Positions 4,691-27,672 of a stretch of DNA of 61,705 bases are shown in pieces. Every line of letters begins with the position of its first letter. Positions within the stretch are counted from its first letter, which is position 1. A program made the translations under genes and the position numbers. The stretch comes from Candidatus Limnocylindria bacterium. GTDB lineage: Bacteria; Chloroflexota; Limnocylindria; P2-11E. The stretch lies in contig JBBRQB010000005.1 of assembly GCA_038227105.1 (NCBI GenBank), positions 1 to 61,705 of the forward strand. The letters run 5' to 3'. The notes beneath the pieces were generated by a model. That model was not told the DNA's origin and did no database searches. It saw nothing but the letters and a program-made list of their open reading frames with translations.

Positions 4691-4694
4691 GAGC

Positions 4695-5702
4695 TCAGTC
4701 CTTGACCGCGTCGAGCCAGCGCGGCTCAGGCAGGTCGAACCGCCGGGCGGCCCACGCGAGCGTCGCCTTGAGCTGCCGCCGCTGGACCGAGCGGATGCGC
4801 GGAAGCCCAGCCTGCGCCGGCCGCCAGGCGCGATCGGCGAAGTAGCCCGCGATCCCAGCGATGGATGCGTCGAGGGCGACGCTGCGCAGCGGCAGGACAC
4901 GCTCGTACTCCGCGACGACGCGCTCCGGTGCCGGCCCGCCCTCCATCGCGACGGCCTGCGCGAACGCCGCGGCCTCGAACTCATGCGGTCCGAGTGCCGC
5001 GAAGTTCCAATCGAACATGCGGAGCCGGTCGCCCTGGAGTCGGATGTTGTCGGAGCGCGTGTCGAAGTGCATGAACACGAAAGGCGGGCGCACTTTTCGG
5101 AGCAGCGACTCCTGCTCGCGGAGTAGCGGCAGCGCCACATGCAGCCACTCCTCGGCCTCGGCCATCCTGCGGCCGGCGAGCGAGGCCGTGCGGTCGAGCC
5201 CGTCGTCGGCGAGCGCATCCCAGGACCCGGAGAACCGGTGGTGCTCGGTGCGCGACAGCCACGCGGGAAGGCTCTTCCCGTACGTCACGCGATGGAACTT
5301 CGCGTACGACCGCGTGCTCGCGGCCGTCTTTGCGACGGTCCAGGGCGGCATCGTGTCGGGACCGACGTCCTCGAGGACCATGACGTGCCAGCCCGCGGCG
5401 CGAACGCTCCCGTAGTACCGCGGCGCCCAGGGACGCATGAACGGCTCGCACTCCTGATAGACGTGCTCCTCGGGATCGAGCATCCACCGGACCGCGCTGC
5501 CGGCGGGCAGGGGGTACGTGCCCTTCAGGAAGAGCTTGCGTCCCGTGCTGGTCGTGATGCGGAATGTCGCCGACGGCGCATACCCGCCACACGCGCGATC
5601 GGCGCGTGTGACGCGGCCCCGCAGCAGCTTCGCGAGCTCGTCCTTGACCGCCTGCGGCACCGCCGACCACGGCGGCTTGAGCTCAGTCCCGGTCCGCGAC
5701 AA
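4695..5702 (-). CDS. Aminoglycoside phosphotransferase-like kinase
   Basis: LFLKG, HFDTRSDN catalytic loop, FDW metal-binding motif. Confidence 0.75.
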   Translation of the reverse strand: MSRTGTELKPPWSAVPQAVKDELAKLLRGRVTRADRACGGYAPSATFRITTSTGRKLFLKGTYPLPAGSAVRWMLDPEEHVYQECEPFMRPWAPRYYGSVRAAGWHVMVLEDVGPDTMPPWTVAKTAASTRSYAKFHRVTYGKSLPAWLSRTEHHRFSGSWDALADDGLDRTASLAGRRMAEAEEWLHVALPLLREQESLLRKVRPPFVFMHFDTRSDNIRLQGDRLRMFDWNFAALGPHEFEAAAFAQAVAMEGGPAPERVVAEYERVLPLRSVALDASIAGIAGYFADRAWRPAQAGLPRIRSVQRRQLKATLAWAARRFDLPEPRWLDAVKD

Positions 5703-11916: not shown

Positions 11917-12774
11917 TCAGGCCGCCCCGGCCATGAGTTCGCCCAGCGCGCGCTTCACGAAGACACCGACGATGTGCCGTTTGTACTCGGCAGTGCCGGC
12001 GAGATCGTCACTGGGATCCACGGCTGCGCGCGCGGCCTCGGCGAGCGCATCTGCCGTGCCTGGATCGCGCGCGTCGGCGCCCGAGAGCTGCCCGGTCGGG
12101 ACCGCACGGGGCACCTCGTCGACCGCGCCGATGACGAGCGCGGGCGCGCCGATGAATTTCCCGTCGCGGATGGTCGCGACCGCAGCGACTCCGAGGCTCG
12201 GCCGCTCGAGGACCTGGAACTTCACGTAGGCCATCCGCACGTCGCGCACCGGGATAGGGATCTCGATCGCGACGATGATCTCGTCCGGGCCGAGCGCGGT
12301 CTGGTACATGCCGGTGAGCAGCTCGCTCACGAGAAGGGTCCGGGTCCCGCCCGGACCTTCAAGGACGACGTGCGCGCCGAGGGCGACGAGGAGCGCCGGA
12401 GGGTCCGCATGCGGCTCCGCGAACGCGAGGTTGCCGGCGAGCGTTCCGGCGGCACGGACCCGGATATTCGCCACGTGCGCCTCGAGCTTCGCGAAGACAG
12501 GGAGGGCCTTGGCGATGGCGGGGTCGCGCTCGAGATCCCAGTGGGTAACGGTCGCGCCGATCCGGACGGCCTCGTCCGTAACGGTGACCCCCCGGAGCGC
12601 GCCGATGGGCTTGATGTCGATCAGGTGCGGCCAGCGGGCGACGCCCAGCTTCATGGCGAGGAGGAGCTCGGTCCCGCCGGCATAGACGGCAGCGTCCTCA
12701 CCGTGCTGCTGTCGGAGCGCCACGGCCTCCGCCACGGAAGCCACCCGATGGACATCGAAACGCCGCAAGACCAA
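11917..12774 (-). CDS. FAD-binding medium subunit (CoxM-like)
   Basis: AGGTELL, RAAGTLAGN, PHAD motifs; adjacent to S and L subunits. Confidence 0.92.
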   Translation of the reverse strand: MVLRRFDVHRVASVAEAVALRQQHGEDAAVYAGGTELLLAMKLGVARWPHLIDIKPIGALRGVTVTDEAVRIGATVTHWDLERDPAIAKALPVFAKLEAHVANIRVRAAGTLAGNLAFAEPHADPPALLVALGAHVVLEGPGGTRTLLVSELLTGMYQTALGPDEIIVAIEIPIPVRDVRMAYVKFQVLERPSLGVAAVATIRDGKFIGAPALVIGAVDEVPRAVPTGQLSGADARDPGTADALAEAARAAVDPSDDLAGTAEYKRHIVGVFVKRALGELMAGAA

Positions 12775-12806
12775 TTTTCAGGCCCCTTCGTCAGTGCTGC
12801 CGGTCC

Positions 12807-12825
12807 ACTGTATCCGATATACAGT
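12807..12825. promoter_or_regulatory. Palindromic operator ACTGTAT-N5-ATACAGT
   Basis: Perfect 7-bp arms in the intergenic gap upstream of the FAD subunit; core GTAT-N5-ATAC recurs at 31638 and 32951. Confidence 0.6.
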
Positions 12826-12829
12826 CGCC

Positions 12830-13309
12830 TTAGACGTGACCAGAGCCGATGGCTTCCGCGGCGCCCAGCTCCCGCCCGAGGTTCGAGAAGAACTCGTCGA
12901 GGACCTTGTCCCCCTTCTTCCGGATGGGGCCCGAGCCGAGCGTCGCGACCCGGCCGGTGATCTCGAAGCGGCCGGCCGCGGTCAGGAACGTGCCGCCGTC
13001 ACGGGGCTCGATGGCGAGCTCGATCGTCGCGGAGATGCGCGAACCGATCTGGCGATCCTCGCCGGCGGCGGCAACGTGCATCGTGCGGGCGTCGGCGTCG
13101 GCGTCGACCTTCACGTCGAGATCGGCGCGCATCGCGAACGGGCCGAGACGATCCTCAAGCATTGCCGAGTAGCGGCGCGGCGGATCCACATCCTTCACGT
13201 CTCGAACGACCGAGAGCCACGACGCGACCCGGCGCACGTCCCCCAACGCGTCCCATACCGCGGTCGGCGTCGCGGACAGCTGGATCGTCTTGGCGAAATC
13301 CTGGAACAC
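12830..13309 (-). CDS. CoxG/SRPBCC family protein
   Basis: GTG 13309 with GGAGGAG RBS; VWDALGD...RLGPF...GRVATLGSGPI CoxG-like pattern; next to Mo hydroxylase genes. Confidence 0.8.
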   Translation of the reverse strand: MFQDFAKTIQLSATPTAVWDALGDVRRVASWLSVVRDVKDVDPPRRYSAMLEDRLGPFAMRADLDVKVDADADARTMHVAAAGEDRQIGSRISATIELAIEPRDGGTFLTAAGRFEITGRVATLGSGPIRKKGDKVLDEFFSNLGRELGAAEAIGSGHV

Positions 13310-13356
13310 GTTTCTCCTCCACGCGAAGACATCGTCAGTAAAACACGAGGTGAGAG

Positions 13357-14466
13357 ATGAGCGACGCATCCGCGGCAGCACAGGGCACTGAGCAGCAGCG
13401 ACCGGCGACGTGGGGCCGCGGGGCGTATGAGCAGTTCATCGAGACCGAGGGGATCCCGATCCACACGGGCGTCGCAGTCGAGGACCTCCGCACCGCGAAG
13501 GTGGCCCCGTGGGCCCGCCTCGACGCGAAGGGCGCCTACATCCGGCTCCTCGGCGCCGAAGACACGGACAACGGCTACCTCCTCGAGCTCGACCCCGGCA
13601 AGTCGAGCGCGCCGGAGAAGCATCTGTTCGAGGAGTACTTCTTCGTCCTGACGGGTCGCGGCACGTGCGAGGTCTGGAACGAGGGCGAAGCGCCGCGCAC
13701 GTTCGAATGGCAGGAAGGCAGCCTCTTCTCGGTGCCGCTCAACACGCTGCACCGTCTGCACAACGGCTCGGGCTCGCTGCCCGCCCGCCTGCTCGCAGTG
13801 ACAACGATGCCGATCATGATGAATCTCGTGCACAACACCGAGTTCATCTTCGGTGGTGCGGACTATCTCTTCCGCGACCGCTACGACGGGCGCAAGGAGT
13901 ACTTCGACGGCGCCGGCACGCTCTACACCGGCCGGGTCTGGGAGACGAACTTCGTCGCCGACATCCGCCGGTTCCAGCTTCGTGACTGGCACGAGCGCGG
14001 AGCGGGCAGCAAGAACATCCGCTTCGAATTCGCGAACAACACGATGGTCTCCCACGTGTCCGAGTTCCCGGTCGGCACCTATAAGAAGGGTCACCGCCAC
14101 GGGCCGGGGTACCACGTCGTCATGCTGAATGGCACGGGCTACTCGCTGATGTGGCCGGACGGCGCCGCTGAGATGACCGAGGTCAACTGGAAGGTCGGCT
14201 CGCTGTTCGTGCCGCCGGGTCTCTGGTGGCACCAGCACTTCGTGACCGGCAACGAGCCGGCGCGGTACCTCGCTATCCGCTGGGGCGGCAACAAGTGGAA
14301 GCTGGCCCAGTACCTCGACAACCAGGGCGTCGACAAGGACGTCTCGCAGGGTGGCAACCAGATCGAGTACGAAGACCAGGACCCGAAGATCCATCGCCTG
14401 TACCTCGAGCGCTGCGCCGCCAACGGGGTGCCGGTGAAGATGGACGCCTTCAAGGTCCGCGTTTAG
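13357..14466 (+). CDS. Bicupin metalloprotein 1
   Basis: Two cupin repeats: KHLFEE...LHRLHN and HRHGPG...WWHQH; GAGG RBS. Confidence 0.85.
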   Translation: MSDASAAAQGTEQQRPATWGRGAYEQFIETEGIPIHTGVAVEDLRTAKVAPWARLDAKGAYIRLLGAEDTDNGYLLELDPGKSSAPEKHLFEEYFFVLTGRGTCEVWNEGEAPRTFEWQEGSLFSVPLNTLHRLHNGSGSLPARLLAVTTMPIMMNLVHNTEFIFGGADYLFRDRYDGRKEYFDGAGTLYTGRVWETNFVADIRRFQLRDWHERGAGSKNIRFEFANNTMVSHVSEFPVGTYKKGHRHGPGYHVVMLNGTGYSLMWPDGAAEMTEVNWKVGSLFVPPGLWWHQHFVTGNEPARYLAIRWGGNKWKLAQYLDNQGVDKDVSQGGNQIEYEDQDPKIHRLYLERCAANGVPVKMDAFKVRV

Positions 14467-14533: not shown

Positions 14534-15946
14534 GTGGCCACCGAGCGTCTTCGTCTGCGCACGGTGGGCATCGACATCGGCACGACGACCTCGCACCTGA
14601 TCTTCTCGGAGATCGTGCTCGAGCGGCAGGGCATCCTGCTCTCCAGCGCGTACGGCGTGGTCGAGCGGAACATCATCCACCGGTCCGACGTCGCGCTCAC
14701 GCCCTATGCGGCCGGCCGTCGCATCGACACCGCCGCGCTGGCTGCGTTCATCGAACGCTCGTACCGCGAGGCGGGCTGGCGGCCCGAACAGGTCGACACG
14801 GGCGCGGTCATCACGACCGGCGAGGCCGCCCGCCAGGAGAATGCCGCCGCGATCGTTGCGCTCTTCAGCGGCGAGGCCGGAAAGTTCGTGTGCGCCACCG
14901 CGGGTCATCACCTCGAGAGCCTCCTCGCCGCGCACGGCTCGGGCGCGGTGCGGCGGTCGCGCGAGGCCGCTACTCCCCTCGTCCTGAGCATCGACATCGG
15001 AGGCGGCACCACCAAGCTCGCGGTCTGCCGGGATGGGCGGGTCGAGGAGACCGCGGCGATCGACGTCGGCGCGCGGCTCTTCGCCTGGGACGCTGTAGGC
15101 ACGATCGTGACCGCGACCCGCGCCGGAGCGCGCGTCGCCTTGGAGGCGGGCGTGCGCATCGCCCTCGGCGACGCGGCCGACCCGCAGGCGCTCCAGGCCG
15201 TGGCCGACCAGATCGCGGACCAGGCGTTGCGCGTCGCGGCGGGCACGCCATTCGACGACGCGGGGATCTGGCTCACCGCGCCGCTCGTGGCGCAGGGCCC
15301 GTTCCCGGTCCTCATGTTCTCCGGTGGCGTTGGCGAATACGTCAACGGCTGGCAGGACCGCGAGTACGGTGACCTCGGGCTCCTCGTCGGTCGGGCGATC
15401 GTGCGACGGACGGCGGCGTTCTCGGTGCTACGGCCCGTCGAGTCCATCCGCGCCACCTGCATCGGCGCCTCCCAGTACACGGTCCAAGTGAGCGGCGACA
15501 CGCTGTTCCTCTCCGATCCGGGCTTGCTGCCGCTGCGCGACCTCGCGGCCGTGGCCGTGCGGCCGGAGCAGGCCGACGCGAGCGCGATCGCTGCCGAGAT
15601 CCGCCGCGGGATCACCCGCCTCGATCGTGAGGGCGGATCGTTCGCGCTCGCGGTGCGCTGGCGGCACGGCTCCCGGTACCCGATGCTCCGTGCGCTCTGC
15701 GACGGCATCGTCGCCGGTACGCAGGGACGGATCGCGGCCGGCGGTCCGCTCGTGATCGTGCTCGATGCGGACGTAGCCGGGATCGTCGGCCAGATCCTCG
15801 TGAGCGAGCTTGGGGTCAGCTCGCCGATCGTCTGCGTGGATCAGATCGCGCTGTCGGACCTCGACTTCATCGACATCGGCACGGTCGTGCCCGAGCACGC
15901 CGTCGTGCCGGTCGTCGTGAAGAGCCTCGTCTTCTCCGAGCGTTAG
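14534..15946 (+). CDS. eutA: EutA-family (ethanolamine ammonia-lyase reactivase-like) ASKHA ATPase
   Basis: VGIDIGTTTSHLIFS, TGEAARQENA, FVCATAGHHLESLLAAHGSGA, IDIGGGT, FSGGV, IRATCIGAS. Confidence 0.85.
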   Translation: MATERLRLRTVGIDIGTTTSHLIFSEIVLERQGILLSSAYGVVERNIIHRSDVALTPYAAGRRIDTAALAAFIERSYREAGWRPEQVDTGAVITTGEAARQENAAAIVALFSGEAGKFVCATAGHHLESLLAAHGSGAVRRSREAATPLVLSIDIGGGTTKLAVCRDGRVEETAAIDVGARLFAWDAVGTIVTATRAGARVALEAGVRIALGDAADPQALQAVADQIADQALRVAAGTPFDDAGIWLTAPLVAQGPFPVLMFSGGVGEYVNGWQDREYGDLGLLVGRAIVRRTAAFSVLRPVESIRATCIGASQYTVQVSGDTLFLSDPGLLPLRDLAAVAVRPEQADASAIAAEIRRGITRLDREGGSFALAVRWRHGSRYPMLRALCDGIVAGTQGRIAAGGPLVIVLDADVAGIVGQILVSELGVSSPIVCVDQIALSDLDFIDIGTVVPEHAVVPVVVKSLVFSER

Positions 15947-17274
15947 CTCGTCCCGGCCGCGACCGACGCGGCGATATCGCGATTGAGATGCGCCCCGAGT
16001 GGCACCGAGGCGGGGCGGTCCTGGTTGCAGAGGTCCATCGCGATCCGCGCGTAGACCCGTGCCGCGTCCTGCAGGTCCTTCACCTTGAACGACTTCTTGG
16101 CTGCGTGGCTGGCCGAGCGCGGCGCGTAGCTGATCGCGGGGATGCCGAGCTCGTTGAAGGCGTTCGTGTCGCGCCACATGCTCGTGACCGGCTCCCCCAC
16201 GATCGCCGGCGGCGTCGAAAAGGTCTGATCGTGCGACCGCCGGACGGTCTCGATGAGCCGCTCGGCACCTTTGGCTTCGAACCCGGGCCGGTAGAGGAAG
16301 AGCTCGACCGTTCCGTCGACGCCCGCGGTACGAAGGACCCCACGGAGCTCCTCCCGGATATCGATGGGATTCGCCCCGGGCAGGATGCGGGTGTCGACAT
16401 AGAAGGAGCAGACCTGGGGCGCGCTGGTCAGGCTGAACGGATACCCCGACCGGATGGCGTTGACGCTCGCCTTGGGCACGATCGTGCCGGCGGGGCCGCG
16501 GTACGTATTCCGTTGCTGGTAGCCGTAAGCCCACTCCTCGAACGTCGCGATGACCGCTGCCGCCCTGACGATGGCGTTCGGCGCGTCCGCGAGACCAGTC
16601 GGTCGCGGCAGGTACGGGGTGTAGTAGCGCGGCGTGTCGGTCTGGATCGTGACCTTGAAGTGGGCCTTGCCGGGCTCGACGCCGACGATCCCGAAGCCGG
16701 TCCCCTCTGCGACGATCGCGAAGTCGGCGACGGCGCCGTGGGTCACCATGAAGCGCACGCCGAGGTCCTTCGACAGGTACATGGGGCCTTGCCATTCCTC
16801 GATCGGCTCCCGTGAGATCTCGCCAGCGACGGCGCTCACGATGAGGTCTCCCTTCAGCGGGAATCCGGAATCCTTGATCGCCTTGGCGGCCACGAGGAAC
16901 GCGGCCATCGGCCCCTTGTCGTTCACCACCCCGTCGCCATAGATGTCCTCGCCGTCGACCCAGGCCGAGTGATAGAGCGGGTCGTTCGGATCCTTGGCCG
17001 ACCAGACGGCGTCGCGGCGGAGCGTCGTGTCGAGGTGGGAGTTGTAGATGAGGCTATAGCCGCCGCCCGTCCCGTTGAGCCACGCGGCGACGTTGAACCG
17101 CTCCGGGATCAGCGCGAACTTCTTCGGCGCGAAGCCGTTGCGCTCGAGCCACTCGTACACGAACTGGCCCGCCGGCCCCTCGCTCCCGGTCGGACTATCG
17201 ATGTTGCCGAGAGCCAGCGCGAGGTCGACGACCTCCTGCGGGTCGATGTGGGCAACGACATCGTCGGGGGTCAT
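15943..17274 (-). CDS. M20 family (ArgE/DapE-like) metallo-amidohydrolase
   Basis: DSPTGSE, NSHLDT, YGDGVVNDKG, IVAEGT; ATG 17274 with AAGGAG RBS. Confidence 0.85.
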   Translation of the reverse strand: MTPDDVVAHIDPQEVVDLALALGNIDSPTGSEGPAGQFVYEWLERNGFAPKKFALIPERFNVAAWLNGTGGGYSLIYNSHLDTTLRRDAVWSAKDPNDPLYHSAWVDGEDIYGDGVVNDKGPMAAFLVAAKAIKDSGFPLKGDLIVSAVAGEISREPIEEWQGPMYLSKDLGVRFMVTHGAVADFAIVAEGTGFGIVGVEPGKAHFKVTIQTDTPRYYTPYLPRPTGLADAPNAIVRAAAVIATFEEWAYGYQQRNTYRGPAGTIVPKASVNAIRSGYPFSLTSAPQVCSFYVDTRILPGANPIDIREELRGVLRTAGVDGTVELFLYRPGFEAKGAERLIETVRRSHDQTFSTPPAIVGEPVTSMWRDTNAFNELGIPAISYAPRSASHAAKKSFKVKDLQDAARVYARIAMDLCNQDRPASVPLGAHLNRDIAASVAAGTS

Positions 17275-17291: not shown

Positions 17292-18509
17292 TCAATTCAA
17301 GTCCACGGTCGGCGGCACGCCGATGCGCGCAATGAGGGACGCGAGCAGCAGCACGATGGCCGCGGTGATGATCGCAGCTTGGGCGCTGATGAGATCCATC
17401 ACCGCAGCGAGCGCGACGGGACCGATGAACGCCCCGAGGTCGGCTGAGAAACGATAGGTCCCGAGGACCTTCGTGCGATCCTGCGGGGGGACGATCTCCG
17501 ACAGCAGCGCGGTCTGGGAGCTCGAGAAGAAGTCCCCGAACCCGATGAGCGCCGCGGCGAGCAGGAATGTCACCAGGTCGTGCGTGAACAGGAAGACCAG
17601 GTCGCCTGCGGCGATCGCCGCGAGCCCAGCGGTGATGATCCGCCGCCGGCCCACACGGTCGCCCAGCATGCCGCCCGGCGTCGCGACCAGCAGGCCGGTG
17701 ATCGACATGAGCGCGATGGCCGTGGCGATCGAGATGCCGCCGAGCCCGAGCGCCGTCGCCGCGTAGAGCGGCAGGATCGTGTTCCGGAAGCCGTGGCGGT
17801 TGATCATGTTGGCGACGACGCCCAGGTTCGTCGCGCCGATCGCGATCACGCGCTCCCGGCCATGAAGAACGCGTGCCTCGCCCAGCGATGCGCGGGGAGC
17901 GGACCCGCTGCGCGGGTGCACCTGCCGCAGCACCGGCAGCAGGATCGCTCCGGCGACCAGGATGAGCGCGAACGTGACGGCGAAGGTCACCCGCCAGCCG
18001 AACAGCACGCCGATGACGCCGCCCACCAGCGGGTACGCGGCGATGCCGACGTTGTTCGCGACGTGGAACAGGCTCATCACCTTGCCGCGATTGCTCGGCG
18101 TCGCAGTTGCGCTGAGGGAGGACAGGACCACCGTCGCAAGGATCCCGACCGCGAAGCCGGATCCCACCCGCGCGACGATCAGCCGCTCGACCGAGGCCGC
18201 GTTGAGCCCGATGAGGCATGACACGAGGGCCAGCACGAGCGCCACCATGCTGATGCGCCGGTGCCCCACCCGGTCGGACACGAAGCCGGCCGGCAGGTCG
18301 ATGATCAGGCGCGCGAGGCCGAACGCTCCGACAATGACGCCGGCCATCGCGATGCTGACCCCGAAGTCCTTCCGGATGTCAGGCAAGAGCGGCGTCATGA
18401 TGTTCGTCGCCGACACGATGAGGAACAGCGCGCCGGCGAGCAGGAAGGACTCCCGCGGGATCGACTCCCGTGCCGCTGCGGCCGGTCCGTCAGCCGCGAC
18501 GGCGGTCAC
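17292..18509 (-). CDS. MFS transporter
   Basis: GFVSDRVGHRR and GMLGDRVGRRR motifs; about 12 TM helices. Confidence 0.9.
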   Translation of the reverse strand: MTAVAADGPAAAARESIPRESFLLAGALFLIVSATNIMTPLLPDIRKDFGVSIAMAGVIVGAFGLARLIIDLPAGFVSDRVGHRRISMVALVLALVSCLIGLNAASVERLIVARVGSGFAVGILATVVLSSLSATATPSNRGKVMSLFHVANNVGIAAYPLVGGVIGVLFGWRVTFAVTFALILVAGAILLPVLRQVHPRSGSAPRASLGEARVLHGRERVIAIGATNLGVVANMINRHGFRNTILPLYAATALGLGGISIATAIALMSITGLLVATPGGMLGDRVGRRRIITAGLAAIAAGDLVFLFTHDLVTFLLAAALIGFGDFFSSSQTALLSEIVPPQDRTKVLGTYRFSADLGAFIGPVALAAVMDLISAQAAIITAAIVLLLASLIARIGVPPTVDLN

Positions 18510-19372
18510 TCGGCGCGCAGCGCCGCGGCGACATCGGCGAGCGTGAGCCGCTCCGGTGCGAGCGCGAGCTCGCGGGTCGAGCTCGCCGCGCGAAGGACGA
18601 GCTTGCGCACCTGGCGCGCGTCAAAGGCCTTGTCAGCGCACGCGCTCGCGATCGCCTGGAGCGCGGCCTCGTCGATGCGGTCGGCGGGCACCAGCTCGGA
18701 GAGGGTGTCGCGGAGGATGCGCGCGATGGCCTTCACGCCGGGCAGTCCGACCTCCTCGACGAGGTCGGCGCGGGAGAGGAACGCAACGTCCACGCCGGCT
18801 GAATGGTTCGTGGTCGCGACGAACGTCACGTTCGGGCAGCTGCGGGACACGTGGTCGACGCCGGCAAGGACCGCGTCGGTGGCGCGATGCACGTCCACCG
18901 GATTCGTCTCGAGCGAAGCTCCGGCCCGACTCACCGCCAGGGACTCGACCTCGTCCAAGAGGACGATCGTCGGGCGGCCCCGGCGCGCGAGATCGGGCAG
19001 CGTCCGCTCGAAGAGCCGAGCAACGCTGCGCTGACTCTCACCGAGCATCTGGCTCGGGAACGAGTGCGGATCGATGTCCACGAAGAGGATCGGATCCCCG
19101 AGCACGCGCGCCGCCTGATCGGCGAGGCCGCCGGCGAGGGTGGTCTTCCCCGTACCCGGCGGGCCCGCGAGCACGACGAGGCCGTGGATCGGCAGCCCGA
19201 CCGCGCTGACCCCGCCGCGGTGCTTGAGCGACAGCAGCAGGTAATTGAGCAGCCGCTCCTTGAGCTCCGGCGCCACGAAGATGCGGTCCCACCGTTCTTG
19301 CCACGCAGGGTCGGGAAGCTCCGTGATCGAGACGATCCCCTCGATCCCCGGTGGGACCTGGACGGCGGGCAT
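18506..19372 (-). CDS. AAA+ ATPase, Pch2/TRIP13-like
   Basis: Walker A GPPGTGKT, Walker B LLDEVESL, sensor 1 ATTN, DVAFLSRAD Arg finger; N-terminal LP...W..I.....K..LL.Y as in Pch2/TRIP13. Confidence 0.85.
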   Translation of the reverse strand: MPAVQVPPGIEGIVSITELPDPAWQERWDRIFVAPELKERLLNYLLLSLKHRGGVSAVGLPIHGLVVLAGPPGTGKTTLAGGLADQAARVLGDPILFVDIDPHSFPSQMLGESQRSVARLFERTLPDLARRGRPTIVLLDEVESLAVSRAGASLETNPVDVHRATDAVLAGVDHVSRSCPNVTFVATTNHSAGVDVAFLSRADLVEEVGLPGVKAIARILRDTLSELVPADRIDEAALQAIASACADKAFDARQVRKLVLRAASSTRELALAPERLTLADVAAALRAE

Positions 19373-19375
19373 GCG

Positions 19376-20422
19376 TTAGGCCCCGGGCCGCCCAGCGAAG
19401 TGCTCGGGCCCGATGAGCCGGGAGAGATCCGGTGCGTCGAGCTCAGGAAGCTCCTCGAACAGGTTCATCGGGTCGAGGAGGATCCGCATCATGTCGTAGA
19501 GCGCGTCGAAGTTGTGCACGCGGATGAGCCGCGCGGTCTTCGTCTTGTCGTCAGTGAAGTGCTGGTGCCAGGCCCAGTGGTCGACCACGATGAGGTCGCC
19601 CTCCTCCCAGGGGAAGCTCACGCCATCGAGCTCGCTGTGGCCCCGTCCGGAGACGACGTAGAGCCAGGCCTCGCCGCCGTGGCGGTGGCGCGACTGGTAG
19701 AGGCCGGGCGCGAGCTCGTGCATGACCGCGGAGAGACCCGCGGTGTGGTACCCGATGGACGTGTCGATGAGGAAGAGGCTGCGGGCACCACGCTTGGTGA
19801 TGAGCCCGCGGACGTCATCGAAGCGCGTGATGAGCCGTGCGCTGTCAGATCCCGCGAACTGCTGCGCGAGGCGCTGGGTGCGCCGGGCGAGCGGATCCGC
19901 CCCGGCGATCGCGGCGACCTGCTTGGGACGCGGTGGCAGCTTCGCGACCGGAGTGTCGCCGCCGTCCTCGAGGAGCGCGACGCCGAACTGCTCGAGCATC
20001 GGTTGCACGCTCCAGGTGTGGAAGACCGCGGTGGTGTCCGAGTCATTGCCATGGCGGTGCCAGGCCCAGCTCGGCAGGTGGATGGTGTCCCAAGGCCGCC
20101 AATCGATGCGCTGGCCGTCGATCTCGGTCCAGCCGGTGCCGGACTCGATGAACTCGATCGCGTCCCACGAGTGGCGGTGCACCGTCGTGGTCGTGTGCGG
20201 CGGGATCTCGTGCAGCGTCGCGTCCAGGTTCTTTGTCGGCTTGTCGCCGTCGTAGCCCGCGTACACGCCGCTTCGCATCCGCCGGCCGGGAACGTCATGC
20301 ATGACGACGTCGCTCCGCTTGATGACCGTCTTGTGGTAGCGCTTCCACTCGTCCAGCAGCGACTCGCGCCGCTTCTTCTGGATCTCGTAGTGGGTCACCT
20401 GGGTGGTCGTCGTCGTCTTCAT
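19376..20422 (-). CDS. Bicupin metalloprotein 2
   Basis: HRHSWD...WHRH and HRHGGE...WHQH. Confidence 0.88.
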   Translation of the reverse strand: MKTTTTTQVTHYEIQKKRRESLLDEWKRYHKTVIKRSDVVMHDVPGRRMRSGVYAGYDGDKPTKNLDATLHEIPPHTTTTVHRHSWDAIEFIESGTGWTEIDGQRIDWRPWDTIHLPSWAWHRHGNDSDTTAVFHTWSVQPMLEQFGVALLEDGGDTPVAKLPPRPKQVAAIAGADPLARRTQRLAQQFAGSDSARLITRFDDVRGLITKRGARSLFLIDTSIGYHTAGLSAVMHELAPGLYQSRHRHGGEAWLYVVSGRGHSELDGVSFPWEEGDLIVVDHWAWHQHFTDDKTKTARLIRVHNFDALYDMMRILLDPMNLFEELPELDAPDLSRLIGPEHFAGRPGA

Positions 20423-20424
20423 GA

Positions 20425-21423
20425 CTAGTGCTTCAGCGCCGGCTCACGGCCGGAGACCCGCGGCAGAACGTCACGCGCGAGCGTCTCGATCTGCTGGAGC
20501 CAGTCCGGGAAGCGCATCCGGAAGTCGAAGACGAGGAGGTCGCAGCCGATATCCTGGTACCGCTGGATGCCGCGGACGATGTCGTCGGGCGTGCCGGCGA
20601 GGATCGATCCGTCGAGCTCCTCGATCTTCGTGAACTCGCCGGATTCGGGCTTGTTCCACCACTTCTGGGCGTTCGCGTTCTTGATGAGGCCTGGCACGTT
20701 CATCCGGTCGGTGGCGGCCTGGTAGGACGTGTCGATGCTCGTCACCGGCACGGCGCCGGTCATGATCATCGGCTTGCCCTGCTTCTCGGCCATCTGTTTG
20801 ATCTTCTTCACCCGCTCCTCGTACGTCGGGAACGTGATGCGGCCGGGGATCCAACCCTCGCAGAAGTCCACCGCAAGCCGCGCGGAGGCCGGCGTCGCAC
20901 CGCCCCACCACACCGGTACCGGGTGCACCGGCTGCGGCTTGAGGTCCACGTCAGCGAAGTTGTAGAGGTCGCTGTGCCATTCGACGGTCTCCCCCGCCCA
21001 GAGCTTTCGCGCGATGAGGACGTGCTCCTTCATCATCGCGGGACGGTCGACCGAGCTCTGCCCGATGACGTCGAACTCGTGCTGGAAGTTGCCGGAGCCG
21101 ATGCCGAGGTCGAACTTCCTGCGGGTCATCCAGGACATCGAGGCGACGCTGTAGGCCATGTGCAGCGGGTTGCGGAACGGGATGATCGTCGCGGCGCCGA
21201 GACCGATCTTCTCCGTCACGCCCGCCAGATAGGTCAGCGCGACGAACGGCTCGATGAACGTGCGGTCGGTCCCCTCCATGCCGTGCGGATGGAACACGAG
21301 GTGATCGCGCACCCACAGGGAGTCGAAGCCGAGGCGGTCCGCGAGCTGCGCACCCTGGATGAGCAGGTCCTGGTCAGCCTCGACACCGAAGTGCGGGATG
21401 AGCAGGCCGAAGCGCGTGGTCAT
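20425..21423 (-). CDS. LLM-class flavin/F420-dependent oxidoreductase
   Basis: GFDSLWVRDH, LGIGSG, PVWWGG; ATG 21423 with GAAGGAG RBS. Confidence 0.88.
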   Translation of the reverse strand: MTTRFGLLIPHFGVEADQDLLIQGAQLADRLGFDSLWVRDHLVFHPHGMEGTDRTFIEPFVALTYLAGVTEKIGLGAATIIPFRNPLHMAYSVASMSWMTRRKFDLGIGSGNFQHEFDVIGQSSVDRPAMMKEHVLIARKLWAGETVEWHSDLYNFADVDLKPQPVHPVPVWWGGATPASARLAVDFCEGWIPGRITFPTYEERVKKIKQMAEKQGKPMIMTGAVPVTSIDTSYQAATDRMNVPGLIKNANAQKWWNKPESGEFTKIEELDGSILAGTPDDIVRGIQRYQDIGCDLLVFDFRMRFPDWLQQIETLARDVLPRVSGREPALKH

Positions 21424-21531
21424 GGCCGGGTCTCCTTCCGTGGGCGGTGTCCGCGTGCCGTGCTCAAGACCGAAGGTCGCGCGCCCGACGTCCCCGGCAT
21501 GTGGCCGGGGACGTCGAGCCAACGAGCGGAG

Positions 21532-22608
21532 CTACTTCGTCGGGATGCTGTACTTCGCGTAGAAGCCGCCGTCGACGAGCTTCTGGAGGAACGACAGGTC
21601 GTAGCACTTCTTGAGATCGACGCCCGCCACGGGCGGGTTCACGCTCGAGAGCACTTCCTTCGGCGCCACGAACGCTTCTTCGGTGAAGATCATCGAGCGC
21701 AGGCCGTAGTCGAGGAAGCCCTTCACGGCGGTCACCGCGTCGGCCGGCTTGAGCTGGGCCGCGTCGGCGAACTTCACGGCGACATCCGCGTTGTTCGTCC
21801 AGAAGTAGTTCTGCGCGCGCACAGTCGCGGCGACGACGTTCAGGACCGTGTTCGGGTTCTTCGCGACGAAGTCGGCGCGCGCCATGAGACCGCTACGGCC
21901 CCACTGGCCACCCTTGGTCACATCGACGATGAGGTTGTTCCCCGCCGCCTTGAGCTTGTCGTCGTTCACCAGCCCGGCCATGATGCAATCGATCGAGCCG
22001 CCGAGGAGCGCCGCGATCCGCGTGCCCTCGCCGCCGACCTCTTTGATCACGACATCCTTGTTCGTGTAGTTCAGGAGCCTGACGGCGATGAGCGCCGAGC
22101 CGTGCGACGTGCCACCGAACGTGCTGATGGCGATCGCCTTGCCCTTGACGTCAGCCGCGGTCTTGATGGTCGACTTGCAGTAGAGACCGTCGGTGTTCAG
22201 GACACTGTTGACCGAAAGGACCTTCAACGGCGTGTCGGTGAGCTGCGACGAGATGGCCGAGGTGACGCCACCGACGAAGAAGTCGAGCTGACCGGCGACG
22301 AGCGCCTGAAGGGCCTTCCCGTCACCCTCGAAGCCGGTCACGGTCACGGAGGTGATGCCGAGCTCCTTGTAATAGCCGAGCGTGTCGGCAAGACGTTCCG
22401 CGTACTGCACGGGCTCCGTCGGCGCGCTAATGCCGATGCGGATCGTGGTCAGCTCGGGCTTGGGCAGCGCGCCCTGCGCCGCTGATGCGCTCGCCGCCGG
22501 GGCGGGCGTTGCGCTGGGGGCGGTCGTGCCGCCGCCGCACGCAGCGGCAACGAGACCGATCGCCGTGATGGCCGCGAGGAACCTAACGAGCTTGAGGTTT
22601 GAGATCAT
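21532..22608 (-). CDS. NitT/TauT ABC substrate-binding lipoprotein
   Basis: Signal peptide with lipobox AAAC, ADVKGK, RIAALLGGSID. Confidence 0.88.
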   Translation of the reverse strand: MISNLKLVRFLAAITAIGLVAAACGGGTTAPSATPAPAASASAAQGALPKPELTTIRIGISAPTEPVQYAERLADTLGYYKELGITSVTVTGFEGDGKALQALVAGQLDFFVGGVTSAISSQLTDTPLKVLSVNSVLNTDGLYCKSTIKTAADVKGKAIAISTFGGTSHGSALIAVRLLNYTNKDVVIKEVGGEGTRIAALLGGSIDCIMAGLVNDDKLKAAGNNLIVDVTKGGQWGRSGLMARADFVAKNPNTVLNVVAATVRAQNYFWTNNADVAVKFADAAQLKPADAVTAVKGFLDYGLRSMIFTEEAFVAPKEVLSSVNPPVAGVDLKKCYDLSFLQKLVDGGFYAKYSIPTK

Positions 22609-22681
22609 CGCTCTACACCCCTTCATCTCGGCCCGGCCCACCGCCGGACGCGCTGAAAATGTAGCCGAGCGAGGCTACATC

Positions 22682-22714: not shown

Positions 22715-23542
22715 CTAGTGGATCTCCTGGCGCCAGACCTCGTAGCGCTTCTCGATCCGGCGCACGCCCTCACCGAGCAGGACCCCGAAGAGGCCGAGGA
22801 GCACGATGCCGAGCATGACGCGGGACGTCTGCAGGAACGCGCCATTCTCCTCGATGTAGTGGCCGATGCCCGCGTTCGCCGCGAGCTCCTCCGCCACGAT
22901 CACACCGACGAGCGCTCGGCCGGTCGCGATGCGGAGGCCGGTCAGCAGGAACGGGAACGTGCTGGGGAGGATCACCGACCGGAACTGCAGCCAGCGCGAG
23001 GCGCCGAAGCTGCGCGCGATGTCGCGGTGCCGCTCGGCCGCTGACTTCACACCCGCGACCGTGCTCACGATGAGCGAGAAGAAGGTCAGCAGGAACACCA
23101 AGATGACCTTCGACTCGAGGCCGATCCCCGCCACGAGGATGATCAGTGGAGCGATCGCCGCCTTCGGCGTCGAGTAGATGCCGAACAGCAGGTAGCTCAC
23201 GAAGTACTCGACTCGGCGGAACATCCCGATAGCAAGACCGAGCGGTATCCCGACGGCGGCGGCGGCGAAGAACCCGAGGAAGAACTCGATACCGCTCGAC
23301 CAGAGGTCGTCCAAGATCTTGCCCGAACCGAAGTCCTGCACCGCCGCGGTGAACACCAAGGACGGCACGCTGAGCAGCGACCGGCGATAGAGGCCGAAGT
23401 CCCCGGCGGCCTCCCAGATCAGGGCGACCACGACGAAGCCGAGGATCCCGTAGAAGAGGCGCTCGTTCGAATTGATGAGCTTGCGCAGCGGACCCGGGCC
23501 CGCCGGGCGCAACGGAGTGGATCCGATCGAGACCGTCGCCAC
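22715..23542 (-). CDS. ABC permease (NitT/TauT)
   Basis: ARSFGAS EAA-loop, LTGLR, GVIVAEE. Confidence 0.9.
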   Translation of the reverse strand: MATVSIGSTPLRPAGPGPLRKLINSNERLFYGILGFVVVALIWEAAGDFGLYRRSLLSVPSLVFTAAVQDFGSGKILDDLWSSGIEFFLGFFAAAAVGIPLGLAIGMFRRVEYFVSYLLFGIYSTPKAAIAPLIILVAGIGLESKVILVFLLTFFSLIVSTVAGVKSAAERHRDIARSFGASRWLQFRSVILPSTFPFLLTGLRIATGRALVGVIVAEELAANAGIGHYIEENGAFLQTSRVMLGIVLLGLFGVLLGEGVRRIEKRYEVWRQEIH

Positions 23543-23544
23543 GC

Positions 23545-24336
23545 TCAGGCCACCTGCGTCGCAGCGGTCACGGCATGCTGGGACAACAGCTTCCAGATCT
23601 GCGCTTCATAAGCGACGAATGCCGGCTCGCGCTTGACCTCGAGCGGCCGCGGCCGGGGAATGTCGATCTTGATGTCGGCGAGGATGCGGCCCGGCCGTGC
23701 CGACATGACGATGACCCGATCCGAGAGGTACACCGCTTCATCGATCTGATGCGTCACGAAGACCACCGTCTTCCGCGCCGCGTTCCAGATGCGGAGGAGC
23801 TCGGCCTGCATCACCTCGCGCGTCTGGGCGTCCAGCGACGCGAAGGGCTCGTCCATGAGCAGGATCGGCGTGTCGACGGCGAGCGCCCGCGCGAGATTGG
23901 CGCGCTGCTGCATGCCACCGGACAGCTGGTACGGGTACTTCGTTTCGAACCCCTGAAGGCCAACGAGCTCCACGAGCGGGGCAGCGCGGCGCCGCGCCTC
24001 GTCGTTCTTGACGCCGGCGCAGACCAAGCCGTAGGCCACGTTGTCGATCACCGAGTACCACGGGAAGAGCGCGGCGTCCTGGAAGACCATCGCGTCCTCA
24101 CGCCCCTTGCCGGTGCCACGAAGCTTGATCTCCCCGGCTGTGGCTTTCAGCAGACCGTTGACGATCTTGAGGAAGGTCGACTTGCCGCAGCCGCTCGGCC
24201 CCAGGATGCTCACGAACTCGCCATCCGCGATGTCGAGGTCCATCCCTTCGATCGCCACGAGCCGTGCCTGCGAGCTGCGATCGCGGTATTCCATGCGGAC
24301 GCCCCGGGCGCTCAGCGCCAGCTCTGAAGTCGTCAC
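23545..24336 (-). CDS. ABC ATP-binding protein
   Basis: GPSGCGKST, LSGGMQQR, LLMDEPF, VTH. Confidence 0.93.
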   Translation of the reverse strand: MTTSELALSARGVRMEYRDRSSQARLVAIEGMDLDIADGEFVSILGPSGCGKSTFLKIVNGLLKATAGEIKLRGTGKGREDAMVFQDAALFPWYSVIDNVAYGLVCAGVKNDEARRRAAPLVELVGLQGFETKYPYQLSGGMQQRANLARALAVDTPILLMDEPFASLDAQTREVMQAELLRIWNAARKTVVFVTHQIDEAVYLSDRVIVMSARPGRILADIKIDIPRPRPLEVKREPAFVAYEAQIWKLLSQHAVTAATQVA

Positions 24337-24337
24337 G

Positions 24338-25201
24338 TTACGGCCCCTCCTCGAGATCCACGTTCGCGCTCGGACGCCAACGCTGGAAACGATGCTCGAT
24401 GCGTCCGGCAAGCTCTGTGGTCAGGACACCCATGAGCGTGAAGATCAGGACGCCGAACAGCATGCGACCACTGTCGAGGACGTCCGCCGCGCGGTCGATC
24501 ATCACCCCGATGCCCTCGGTCTGCGCGTAGAGCTCGGCGACGACCACACCGATGAGCAGGCGCCCCAGCGCCAGCCGGACACCGGTCGCGATGAACGGGA
24601 TCGTCGCCGGGATGACGATCGAGGTGAACAGGCGACGCTGTGACGCGCGAAAGCTGTGACCGACATCGAGAAGCTGCTGATCGACGGTCCGGACGCCCTC
24701 GACCGTCGGCAGGATGATCGAGAAGAAGCCACCGAGGAACACGATGACGATCTTCATCTCGATCCCGAGGCCGACCCACAGGACGACGAGCGGGATCAGC
24801 GCGGGGCGCGGGATCGCGTTCAGGAAGTTCAGCCAGGGGTCGAAGGAGAACGAGAGGCGGCGGTACCAGCCGATCAGGAGACCCAGCGGCACCGCCAGCA
24901 CAAGCGATGCGATGAACCCGACGGTCACTTCCGTCAGGCTGTAGCGGACGTCGTTCCAGAAGCGCGACTTTTGGACCTCCGCCACGGCCGCGGCGAAAAC
25001 GCCGGCCGGGGAGCTGAAGAACAGGTCATTGATGAGACCGAGGTTCGACAGGACCTGCCAGAGGACGAAGAACGTGACCAGACCGCTGAGGCCCAGGGCC
25101 GCTCGTTCGTTGCGCCGGTACCACCGGCCGAGCGCGGACCGGCGTCGCCGGGCGCGCGGCCGGATCACTCGATAGGTGGCGACGGCATCCGCGGACTGCA
25201 C
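24338..25201 (-). CDS. ABC permease (NitT/TauT)
   Basis: GHSFRAS EAA-loop, ATGVR, GVVVAEL. Confidence 0.9.
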   Translation of the reverse strand: MQSADAVATYRVIRPRARRRRSALGRWYRRNERAALGLSGLVTFFVLWQVLSNLGLINDLFFSSPAGVFAAAVAEVQKSRFWNDVRYSLTEVTVGFIASLVLAVPLGLLIGWYRRLSFSFDPWLNFLNAIPRPALIPLVVLWVGLGIEMKIVIVFLGGFFSIILPTVEGVRTVDQQLLDVGHSFRASQRRLFTSIVIPATIPFIATGVRLALGRLLIGVVVAELYAQTEGIGVMIDRAADVLDSGRMLFGVLIFTLMGVLTTELAGRIEHRFQRWRPSANVDLEEGP

Positions 25202-26170: not shown

Positions 26171-27436
26171 CTACGCACTGACGCGCGCGGAAAACCGGAC
26201 CGGGTAGCGCAGCCACCGCGTGAACCGCTCGGTGCGCAGGTCGCGCTCCGGCGAAGCGTCCGGATCGGGCCCGATCCCCCGCTGCGCGACCGCCCGCAGC
26301 TCGAGCGCGACGAGGCCATAGACGTGGTCGTCGGCCACCTCGAACGAGTCGGGCACCGGGAAGCCGCCGCCGACGGAACGGCCGGGACACTGATGCGCAC
26401 CGGCGCCGAACGAGAGGCCCCAGCGGGCGACGTTCGAGTCGATCGTCCGGTCAGGATCGAATTCGTCCGGGCGGTCGCCGAAGAGCTTCGGATCGCGATT
26501 GCCGCTCGTGATATCGAGGACGACCTGCGCGTCCTTCGGGATGCGGACACCGGCGATCTCGGTGTCAACCTCAGCACGCCGTTTCATCTTGGGCGTCGTC
26601 GGCCGGAGCCGCAAGGTCTCGAGGACGACGCGCTGGGCGAAGAGGAGGTCGGCCGTGATGCGCTCGACGATCGCCGCCCGGTCGTCGCGCGCGAAGATGA
26701 GGTCGAAGCAGTTGACGAGGGTCTGGGCGCTCGTGTGCGTCCCACCCTGGAGGTACGTGGCCACCTCGCGGACGATGCGCCCATCGTCGAGCGCTAGTGA
26801 CGGATCCTCCGCGTGGAGCAGGAGCACGGTGTGGATGTCCTGCGGGAGCTCCTCCAGAGGGAGGCCGCCGCCACGGGAGCGTGCGATCAGCGCCTGCCGG
26901 GCGACCCGCGACGGTCCCATGAAGTCGTGCTCGAGCTCGGCGTAGGTCTGCCGCACGAGCGTCCGCACGGCCTCCGGATCCTTCGCGTCGAGGATCGCGC
27001 TGCCCTGCGAAAGCACGTCGACGTGGTGAACCAGCGCGCGCAGGGCCTCGAGCGATCCGTCGTGGTCGATCCCCGCGCGACGCGCGGCGAGAACGACGCT
27101 CAGGGTCTCGCCGATCTGGAACAGATCCACGCGCTCGCGATCGACGAGCACGTCGAGCAGGTCGTTCATGACTGGAGGGAACAGCTCCCGTTCGTAGAGA
27201 CGCAGGACCTCGGCGCGAAACTGCGTGTTCTCCACGCGCCGGCGGGCGCGATGCGTCGCGCCGTGAGTGATGCTCACGACGCCGTCGCGGATGTTGCCGT
27301 GATCGTACGGGCGCTTGTCGAAGCTGCGCGAGAGATTGAGGTCGAACAGCGCTGCGCGGATGTCCGCGTAGCGGTCGAACAGGATCGTGTCTGTAAATTC
27401 GGTCAGCACACCCTCGTCATGGCCCGCCTCGCTCAT
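26171..27436 (-). CDS. Cytochrome P450 (atypical)
   Basis: ETLR, FDPDR, heme motif FGAGAHQCPG. Confidence 0.9.
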   Translation of the reverse strand: MSEAGHDEGVLTEFTDTILFDRYADIRAALFDLNLSRSFDKRPYDHGNIRDGVVSITHGATHRARRRVENTQFRAEVLRLYERELFPPVMNDLLDVLVDRERVDLFQIGETLSVVLAARRAGIDHDGSLEALRALVHHVDVLSQGSAILDAKDPEAVRTLVRQTYAELEHDFMGPSRVARQALIARSRGGGLPLEELPQDIHTVLLLHAEDPSLALDDGRIVREVATYLQGGTHTSAQTLVNCFDLIFARDDRAAIVERITADLLFAQRVVLETLRLRPTTPKMKRRAEVDTEIAGVRIPKDAQVVLDITSGNRDPKLFGDRPDEFDPDRTIDSNVARWGLSFGAGAHQCPGRSVGGGFPVPDSFEVADDHVYGLVALELRAVAQRGIGPDPDASPERDLRTERFTRWLRYPVRFSARVSA

Positions 27437-27672
27437 CGCCCACCCTCCGCATCCGGTACCGGCTCGCCATCCGCATCGAGGATCTCGATCGCGTGCGTCG
27501 GGCAATTGCTGCGGGCGCGGAGGAGCAGTCCACGGTCGGCACTGTGCGCGCCCGGCTGTGGCACCGAGACACCGAGTGACTCAGCGATGCGGAACGCGGC
27601 GGGCAGCAGCCGCACGCAATCACCGGAGCCGATGCAAAGCTCAGGGTCGACGGTCACCTGGGGCTCGCTCAT
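27433..27672 (-). CDS. [3Fe-4S]-type ferredoxin
   Basis: CIGSGDC...CPTHAI; its stop overlaps the P450 start. Confidence 0.88.
   Translation of the reverse strand: MSEPQVTVDPELCIGSGDCVRLLPAAFRIAESLGVSVPQPGAHSADRGLLLRARSNCPTHAIEILDADGEPVPDAEGGR

Follow-up and report, generated by a model that had tools for sequence, protein, structure and literature searches.

ATPases of the TRIP13/Pch2/Cap6 family are tied to HORMA clients in meiosis, the spindle checkpoint, DNA repair and antiphage signaling systems (CBASS) that are based on cyclic oligonucleotides, according to passages of PMC6601020, PMC7159879 and 10.1101/694695 (Ye et al.). Passages of the last of these describe how the pore of E. coli Pch2/Trip13 holds the disordered N-terminus of a HORMA protein, with pore loop 1 contacting the backbone and a ladder of pore-loop-2 His173 residues bonding Ser/Thr at every second residue; HORMA N-termini conserve this Ser/Thr alternation, and Cap6 dismantles active HORMA:CD-NTase complexes. 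Here we analyzed a 61,705-nucleotide stretch of DNA (the window; contig C5, G+C about 0.69) from a Candidatus Limnocylindria genome (2.39 Mb in 109 contigs, 91.9% complete), in which a gene for an AAA+ ATPase of this family lies directly downstream of a gene for a protein with two cupin domains, bicupin A. The bicupin-AAA pair is conserved over three phyla while the other neighbors change, and we consider it roughly 60% probable that the ATPase threads the N-terminal tail of bicupin A, thereby remodeling or reactivating the enzyme. A search of full-text literature, the scope of which ended short of the supplementary trees and figures of PMC6601020 and 10.1101/694695, turned up no account of a pairing between a TRIP13-like ATPase and a cupin.

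The window ATPase resembles Cap6 of the type III CBASS of E. coli MS115-1 (6p8v) in family, length and fold and in keeping the pore-loop-2 histidine; the tail of its proposed client likewise has Ser/Thr at every second position, the spacing given for HORMA N-termini. The ATPase shares 42-47% identity with copies encoded in CBASS operons that have two HORMA genes, and only about 20% with the E. coli MS115-1 protein. It differs from Cap6 in having a bicupin partner encoded upstream, as opposed to HORMA genes downstream, in its catabolic context and in the lack of any HORMA, CD-NTase or effector gene found in the searches described below; it also differs from the CBASS clade in pore loop 1, which is of the type [QDE][ML]LGES instead of Ser/Ala-rich. 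Eukaryotic TRIP13/Pch2 (5vq9, 6f0x, 4xgu) shares the AAA+ module and the family motifs, as seen in the alignment with the nematode protein P0277. Unlike eukaryotic TRIP13, the window protein is without the p31comet-binding N-terminal domain of about 100 residues (the match covers residues 127-341 of the 432 in TRIP13), has neither the Lys-Trp pore loop nor, so far as was found, a HORMA client, and falls in a different clade.

A TRIP13-family ATPase paired with a bicupin

Profile and sequence matches, fold, phylogeny and motifs all identify the 288-aa protein as a genuine TRIP13/Pch2/Cap6-family AAA+ ATPase. A first-pass annotation of this DNA had drawn the likeness from motifs of eukaryotic Pch2/TRIP13; the four TRIP13-like stretches that it quoted were all found in the translation, and the likeness extends well beyond them. 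The PADLOC TRIP13 model PDLC00915 aligned residues 11-287 with positions 11-290 of its 302 (E 4.5e-90, 300.1 bits; 448-503 bits for the ATPases of verified CBASS operons), while Pfam returned a generic AAA domain only. In a sequence search of the PDB, the best single-domain matches were human TRIP13 and C. elegans PCH-2 at 95-99 bits (E 1e-26 to 1e-27 for human TRIP13), compared with about 50 bits per domain for Cdc48. The AlphaFold2 model of the ATPase (predicted local distance difference test score, pLDDT, 95.5) retrieved E. coli MS115-1 Trip13 (6p8v_C) as its first Foldseek match (E 8e-17, TM-scores TMq 0.81 and TMt 0.78, 300 columns), followed by PCH-2 and then human TRIP13 (TMq 0.72-0.79 for the eukaryotic structures). 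An exhaustive search of 1.84 billion cluster representatives returned 143 proteins at E <= 1e-30, one of which was a 455-aa nematode protein.

The catalytic residues of the ATPase are intact: besides the Walker motifs (Table 1), sensor-1 N189 and R201/R253 are invariant among 40 family members. A WD motif precedes the AAA core, and pore loop 2 follows the family pattern NPxDxxRAxxA, which is absent from the outgroups. Pore loop 1, for which the first-pass annotation had noted QML, reads PSQMLGES, with Met-Leu in place of Lys-Trp; the form PS[QDE][ML]LGE[ST] occurs in 20 of 20 bicupin-linked rows of the alignment, and the HORMA-linked rows differ. His162 of pore loop 2 is kept in all 20 bicupin-linked rows and in 9 of 10 HORMA-linked ones.

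A careful maximum-likelihood tree of 74 rows, with FtsH and two Cdc48-like segments as outgroups (three rows) and one eukaryotic row, separated the TRIP13/Pch2/Cap6 family from the outgroups with 100/99 support and placed the window ATPase within it, together with CBASS Cap6 and eukaryotic TRIP13-like rows. The HORMA-linked rows form one clade (100/96) without any bicupin-linked row. Its sister, at 98/94, is a bicupin-linked group from Actinomycetota and a Burkholderiales-like lineage (group B, 100/96), and a second bicupin-linked group, comprising the window lineage and the genome G128 (group A, 99/96), branches outside both. A third clade (99/82) contains the nematode TRIP13-like protein P0277 and has members with the Lys-Trp pore loop. 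Two further basal groups (P0135, P0137, P0139, P0170, P0142 and P0145) consist of TRIP13-like proteins of about 300 aa that are 40-49% identical to the window ATPase and may have yet other partners. A group-A ATPase, P0133, and a 64%-identical bicupin, P0400, are both labeled Streptosporangiales bacterium, each with a longest contig of 25333, and possibly come from one contig (adjacency is not proven), a loose hint that group A reaches into an actinobacterial metagenome-assembled genome (MAG). Six other TRIP13-like proteins (P0231, P0238, P0240, P0251, P0259 and P0263; 512-587 aa) combine an N-terminal ATPase with a C-terminal extension of 230-300 residues without a Pfam match.

Adjacency of the cupin and the ATPase, on which the first-pass annotation had built its proposal, is kept in Chloroflexota, Actinomycetota and Pseudomonadota, with the other neighbors swapped. 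The AAA gene is present in 13 of 61 relatives' genomes, and 12 of these 13 also encode an orthologous bicupin (at least 81% identity). Of the 14 loci in relatives, 12 have the order luciferase-like monooxygenase (LLM)-bicupin-AAA-MFS-M20 and two are truncated by a contig end. Contig ends also explain the two genomes in which ATPase and bicupin were not found together: in G038 the ATPase is at a contig end, and G018 has a bicupin fragment at a contig end and no ATPase match. In G128, a member of the Chloroflexota from another family, the order is bicupin-AAA-LLM-M20 and the AAA protein is 59-61% identical. A bicupin with two Cupin_2 domains is likewise encoded directly upstream of the AAA gene in a Burkholderiales MAG, an Actinomycetota MAG and Mycolicibacterium wolinskyi. 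These distant copies are 49-50% (AAA) and 50-54% (bicupin) identical to those of the window, and their neighbors encode TctC/TctA/TctB, an IclR regulator, Fe(III)/thiamine-type ABC components, an isochorismatase, Amidohydro_2, a second bicupin and an EntS-like MFS transporter; neither LLM nor M20 is found in the proteobacterial and actinobacterial clusters.

Metagenomic sequences extended this survey. The scan was seeded with the C-terminal halves of the ATPase (A2), built because a scan of genome contigs with the full alignment (A1) had picked up the Walker A pattern and only 5 of its 80 loci were true family members. Among 596 stretches we obtained 471 relatives, 80 of which were kept, all at least 71% identical to the Burkholderiales copy. 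A bicupin gene precedes the AAA gene in 73 of these 80 loci, with gaps of 3-164 nt, and the remaining seven have at most 163 nt of upstream sequence available. Whole-genome sampling found the AAA family, CBASS copies included, in 5 of 401 Chloroflexota genomes, 5 of 301 from the family of G440 and 3 of 351 from the order of G438, and similar ESM Atlas clusters came from Chloroflexota, Actinomycetota and Pseudomonadota. No bicupin-AAA fusion was found among the longer family members; the 658-aa P0188 has no cupin domain.

The statement of the first-pass annotation that no HORMA or CBASS genes accompany the pair agrees with our searches, so far as such genes can be searched for. The PADLOC HORMA models 881 and 882 and the Pfam SMODS model for CD-NTases (PF18144) gave no match in four pair-bearing genomes, that of the window (G000) and G438, G439 and G440, and all three matched in the positive control, Herpetosiphon giganteus (83.5 bits for SMODS). 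Pfam bacHORMA_1 and bacHORMA_2 also had no match in the window genome, and the control for these two models matched nowhere either. Since the genome is only 91.9% complete, absence of a HORMA gene from it is not proven. None of the 80 metagenome loci contained a HORMA or CD-NTase gene, and the conserved set (transporters, LLM, M20, isochorismatase and Amidohydro_2) includes no nuclease, SAVED protein, pore-former or other effector. A cryptic HORMA gene within the operon was ruled out because every gene there has another clear Pfam identity of its own.

All HORMA-linked relatives inspected were type III CBASS (L020, L021, L104-L107 and L110; 7 of the 12 plasmid hits inspected), in Herpetosiphon, one Rhizobiales genome, four genomes of the G440 family and one of the G438 order. 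Their ATPases are 39-49% identical to that of the window, a range that meets the 49-50% of the distant bicupin-linked copies, so that identity alone cannot separate the two kinds. The CBASS island of H. giganteus (L020, 5000-12300) has a third-position G+C of 0.14-0.42 against about 0.5 in its flanks, and this difference suggests that the island was recently transferred.

The bicupin tail as a candidate handle

Bicupin A is, by sequence, a distant gentisate-dioxygenase-like bicupin that lies far under the curated cut-offs. It matches Cupin_2 twice (E 1.9e-24) and gentisate dioxygenases (GDOs) in the PDB at E 2e-16 to 6e-11, and scores 68.1 bits with the NCBIfam GDO model TIGR02272 (cut-off 442.1) and 81.3 with the 5-aminosalicylate dioxygenase model (cut-off 650). 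Its homologues are annotated at source as cupin-domain proteins or, automatically, as gentisate 1,2-dioxygenase. The AlphaFold2 core consists of two beta-barrel regions, and the metal ligands are invariant in 16 sequences: H82, H84 and H122 in domain 1 and H246, H248, E251 and H286 in domain 2. Gentisate 1,2-dioxygenases (3bu7, 2d40) likewise have two cupin domains and the HxH...H set in the N-terminal one; unlike them, bicupin A has a full HxHxxxE...H set in the second domain as well, and N- and C-terminal tails of its own. The transporters and hydrolases around bicupin A, which change from cluster to cluster, suggest a pathway that imports and degrades a small acid or a heterocycle.

AAA-linked bicupins begin with the pattern M-x-[ST]-x-T-x-T-x-x-T-H-Y. 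The 61 loci compared have 28 distinct tails, and in all 28 positions 3, 5, 7 and 10 are Ser or Thr while positions 4, 6 and 8 vary; Ser/Thr at 3, 5 and 7 occurs in only 32 of the 2872 open reading frames (ORFs) of the window's own genome. Of 118 database homologues with source-called starts, 99 show a run of Ser/Thr with three-fold periodicity ahead of the HY anchor, compared with 148 of the 2872 own-genome ORFs. The tail is modeled with a pLDDT below 50 at residues 1-6 and of about 58 in the helix that follows. Two AAA-less paralogues of bicupin A (L195 in G031, 4009-5025, and L196 in G033, 1301-2317; 37-38% identity), from genomes without a TRIP13-like gene, keep the HY..Q.RRR anchor and the metal ligands and have neither the Thr-rich N-tail nor the C-terminal WP..RP end. 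The periodic tail is also absent from bicupin B, a second bicupin in the window, and from the second actinobacterial bicupin (bicupin 2). At the other end of bicupin A, residues 309-348 have a pLDDT below 50 and close with a WP[DE]..RP-type end found in AAA-linked orthologues only; these 40 conserved residues might serve for docking or for contacts within an oligomer.

On the ATPase side, His162 lies 86 residues past the Walker A lysine, equal to the distance from Lys87 to His173 in E. coli Pch2 (numbering from passages of 10.1101/694695). The conserved alternating Ser/Thr tail together with the conserved pore-loop-2 His162 matches the way in which Cap6 recognizes HORMA N-termini, and bicupin A is therefore proposed as the client, for which it is the most likely candidate on these sequence patterns. 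A prediction of the 1:1 complex of the ATPase and bicupin A gave a score of 0.00 with a mark of 0.32 and was counted neither for nor against.

In the mechanism that we propose, the ATPase would assemble, by analogy with its family, into an ATP-driven hexamer and engage the flexible N-tail of bicupin A. His162 would bond the alternating Ser/Thr side chains and Met109-Leu110 of pore loop 1 would grip the tail backbone, as in the grip of E. coli Cap6 on the HORMA N-terminus. ATP hydrolysis would then pull on the N-terminal helix (residues 11-28), partly unfolding or loosening the two-metal bicupin. The purpose would most likely be activase-like, namely to reset, in a pathway of small-molecule uptake and breakdown, a dioxygenase-like enzyme that had been inactivated by an oxidized or lost metal or by a trapped ligand, or to load its metal.

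Such servicing has analogues. The AAA+ motors Rca and CbbX, the Rubisco activases, pull on a terminal tail of a metabolic enzyme and so reset it. The working analogy lies in the AAA+ gene beside that of the serviced enzyme and in the terminal tail as a handle; the activases belong to different AAA+ clades and serve a different enzyme, and we claim kinship for the AAA+ core only. EutA and the diol-dehydratase reactivases are also encoded beside the enzyme that they reactivate, and a EutA-family gene follows that of bicupin B in the window. These reactivases have the ASKHA fold rather than the AAA+ fold and their known clients are B12 enzymes, none of which occurs among the genes annotated here. 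An island with two bicupins, each beside an ATPase of a reactivating or remodeling type, fits the idea of an activase.

Several observations weigh against this interpretation. The bicupin-linked ATPases fall in two groups, which none of 200 bootstrap trees unite, and the pair loci reduce to about four lineages, so that their counts are not independent. The assignment of His162 as the probable counterpart of His173 is based on the spacing from the Walker A lysine and not on a superposition. The strict periodic run is absent from 19 of the 118 bicupin homologues, six of which (P0344, P0349, P0353, P0360, P0361 and P0363; 73-77% identity) carry tails rich in Arg/Glu and devoid of a Thr run; the AAA-less negative controls are the two paralogues only. 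Finally, bicupin B and its EutA-like neighbor travel along with the pair, and the assignment of the client could be more complex. As to the two groups, a single bicupin-linked clade was not rejected by the approximately unbiased (AU) test on a quick tree (p 0.343), and the bicupins of groups A and B are clear orthologues with the same tails, because of which we think that the partnership more probably arose once than twice, even though the careful tree does not itself show it. The proposal of the first-pass annotation that this is a metabolic branch of the family withstood the three checks named there as able to refute it, on family placement, on conservation of the cupin pair and on a HORMA gene elsewhere (none found in four pair-bearing genomes), and is qualified in that the branch is two groups and not one clean clade.

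A broader view, which we put forward tentatively and with a good deal less confidence than the threading of the tail itself, is that a HORMA-independent TRIP13-like lineage applies the Cap6 grip, a 'histidine ladder' on a tail of alternating Ser/Thr, to a metalloenzyme, and that defense and enzyme-servicing modules have swapped the motor as it switched clients, the tail motif being a degron-like handle that can be carried from one client to another. Exchange of the motor is suggested because the clade of two-HORMA CBASS Cap6 proteins sits between the two bicupin-linked groups.

Alternative roles for the ATPase

The tail and histidine evidence would fit equally well if the ATPase were a negative switch that pulls apart or inactivates the bicupin or its complex and so shuts the pathway off, and the characterized bacterial relative, Cap6, is a negative regulator according to passages of 10.1101/694695. 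We regard such a switch as unlikely: enzyme and ATPase are translationally coupled and would be made together, which would be wasteful for a pure off-switch, and the conserved genes include no separate signal-sensing part.

Nor is it likely that the ATPase is a chaperone for one-time assembly or metal insertion, comparable to CoxD or NorQ-type proteins, and that it would neither repair the enzyme nor thread its N-tail. Complete metal-ligand sets in both cupin domains and the Fe(III)/thiamine-type ABC genes in the actinobacterial and Burkholderiales-order clusters would agree with this role, but the known maturation ATPases of the CoxD/NorQ type belong to the MoxR group and not to the TRIP13 family, and the conserved Ser/Thr tail and pore-loop histidine speak for threading.

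A third possibility is that the true client lies elsewhere (bicupin B, the EutA-like ATPase, the LLM or a complex of these) and that adjacency to bicupin A reflects co-regulation only. Bicupin B, of a different bicupin family, and the EutA-like ATPase co-occur with the pair in three phyla, and in the window their genes converge on the bicupin A operon. Homologues of bicupin B (40-42% identity) are encoded near bicupin A-AAA in one Burkholderiales-order genome, M. wolinskyi and an Actinomycetota MAG. EutA-like orthologues occur in 11 of 13 AAA-bearing relatives, a EutA-like gene was found in all five other pair-bearing genomes tested, and Burkholderiales-like metagenome loci carry one as well; examples of bicupin B or EutA-like loci are L197 (3816-4877 and 10308-11714), L200 (1560-4150) and L201 (7681-10310). 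Their distances vary: the EutA-like gene is within about 10 kb of the AAA gene in G440, G439 and G991, G438 has one match about 4 kb off on the contig of the AAA gene, and G128 has fragments on other contigs only. We nevertheless consider another client distinctly improbable, as only bicupin A is always directly upstream (3-164 nt) while bicupin B and the EutA-like gene may be up to about 10 kb off or on other contigs, the proteobacterial and actinobacterial clusters have no LLM or M20, and neither bicupin B nor bicupin 2 has the periodic Ser/Thr tail.

That the pair is a conflict or defense module, with the cupin replacing the HORMA and CD-NTase parts, is highly improbable: the nearest relatives of the ATPase are CBASS genes and its distribution is patchy (13/61 relatives; 5/401, 5/301 and 3/351 in the wider samples, CBASS copies included), but the pair sits among genes for transporters and hydrolases and is translationally coupled to them, the conserved set is without a nuclease, pore-former or other effector, bicupin A has no PADLOC match, and its metal ligands are kept as in dioxygenases.

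Gene order and implications

The ATPase and bicupin A genes belong to a minus-strand run of high third-position G+C that extends from the ABC permeases through M20 (Table 1). Both ORFs were recovered where the first-pass annotation had placed them, and its operon of substrate-binding protein (SBP), LLM, cupin, AAA, MFS and M20 was borne out by domain matches, with the start of M20 moved to 17274, 17 nt past the MFS stop (checked stretch 17187-17274). The junction of bicupin A and the ATPase reads TAA-CGC-ATG, confirming the 3-nt gap that had been reported. The MFS start overlaps the AAA stop by 4 nt (GTGA), and 2 nt separate the LLM stop from the bicupin A start. For the LLM itself, translation probably begins with the ATG at 21423 and not with the TTG at 21522, the mechanical ORF start being off. 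Elsewhere in the window, just past bicupin B (11917-13381, minus strand), are genes for a FAD-binding subunit of the CO-dehydrogenase type and for a CoxG-like protein, and one for a cytochrome P450 lies upstream of the ABC genes (26171-27505, minus strand).

Table 1. Features of the bicupin A-ATPase locus and its surroundings, in window coordinates
Feature	Position	Strand	Evidence or remark
TRIP13/Pch2/Cap6-family AAA+ ATPase (P0001), 288 aa	18506..19372	-	PADLOC model, fold, tree
Walker A GPPGTGKT (Lys76)	19142..19165	-	G70, G73, G75 and K76 invariant in 40-sequence alignment A1
Pore loop 1 PSQMLGES	19034..19057	-	Met-Leu vs Lys-Trp of eukaryote-like clade
Walker B LDEVES (Asp140, Glu141)	18941..18958	-	E141 invariant, D140 nearly so, in A1
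Pore loop 2 NPVDVHRAT with His162, family hallmark	18878..18904	-	Alignment
Bicupin A (P0002), 348 aa, gentisate-dioxygenase-like, proposed client	19376..20422	-	Cupin_2 x2
Bicupin A N-terminal tail MKTTTTTQVTHY, predicted pore handle	20387..20422	-	
Bicupin A C-terminal 40 residues, conserved, WP[DE]..RP-type end	19379..19498	-	Alignment, pLDDT
Luciferase-like monooxygenase LLM (P0003)	20425..21522	-	Bac_luciferase E 2.3e-47
NMT1/SsuA-family substrate-binding protein SBP (P0004)	21532..22641	-	
ABC permease, ABC ATPase and second permease, upstream, same direction	22715..25201	-	
MFS transporter MFS_1 (P0005), start overlapping AAA stop	17292..18509	-	
M20-family amidohydrolase/peptidase, 443 aa	15943..17274	-	Peptidase_M20 and M20_dimer
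Bicupin B, 369 aa, different bicupin family	13357..14466	+	
EutA-family (ASKHA) ATPase, 470 aa, directly after bicupin B	14534..15946	+	PF06277 E 3.1e-113

If threading of the bicupin A tail by the ATPase is correct, the client range of the TRIP13 family would widen to a metabolic enzyme. Should the broader, more tentative view of client switching also hold, TRIP13-family motors would be general tail-directed remodelers, of which the HORMA link is one specialization, and the bicupin pair would represent a new class of enzyme activase. Servicing driven by ATP is predicted to be necessary for one dioxygenase-like bicupin family that is frequent in soil metagenomes, which could account for an inactive enzyme when the bicupin is expressed alone. 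With only two proteins, the pair would be a simple system in which to examine how a client is chosen by its terminal tail, and it is relevant to how the eukaryotic TRIP13-HORMA module arose.

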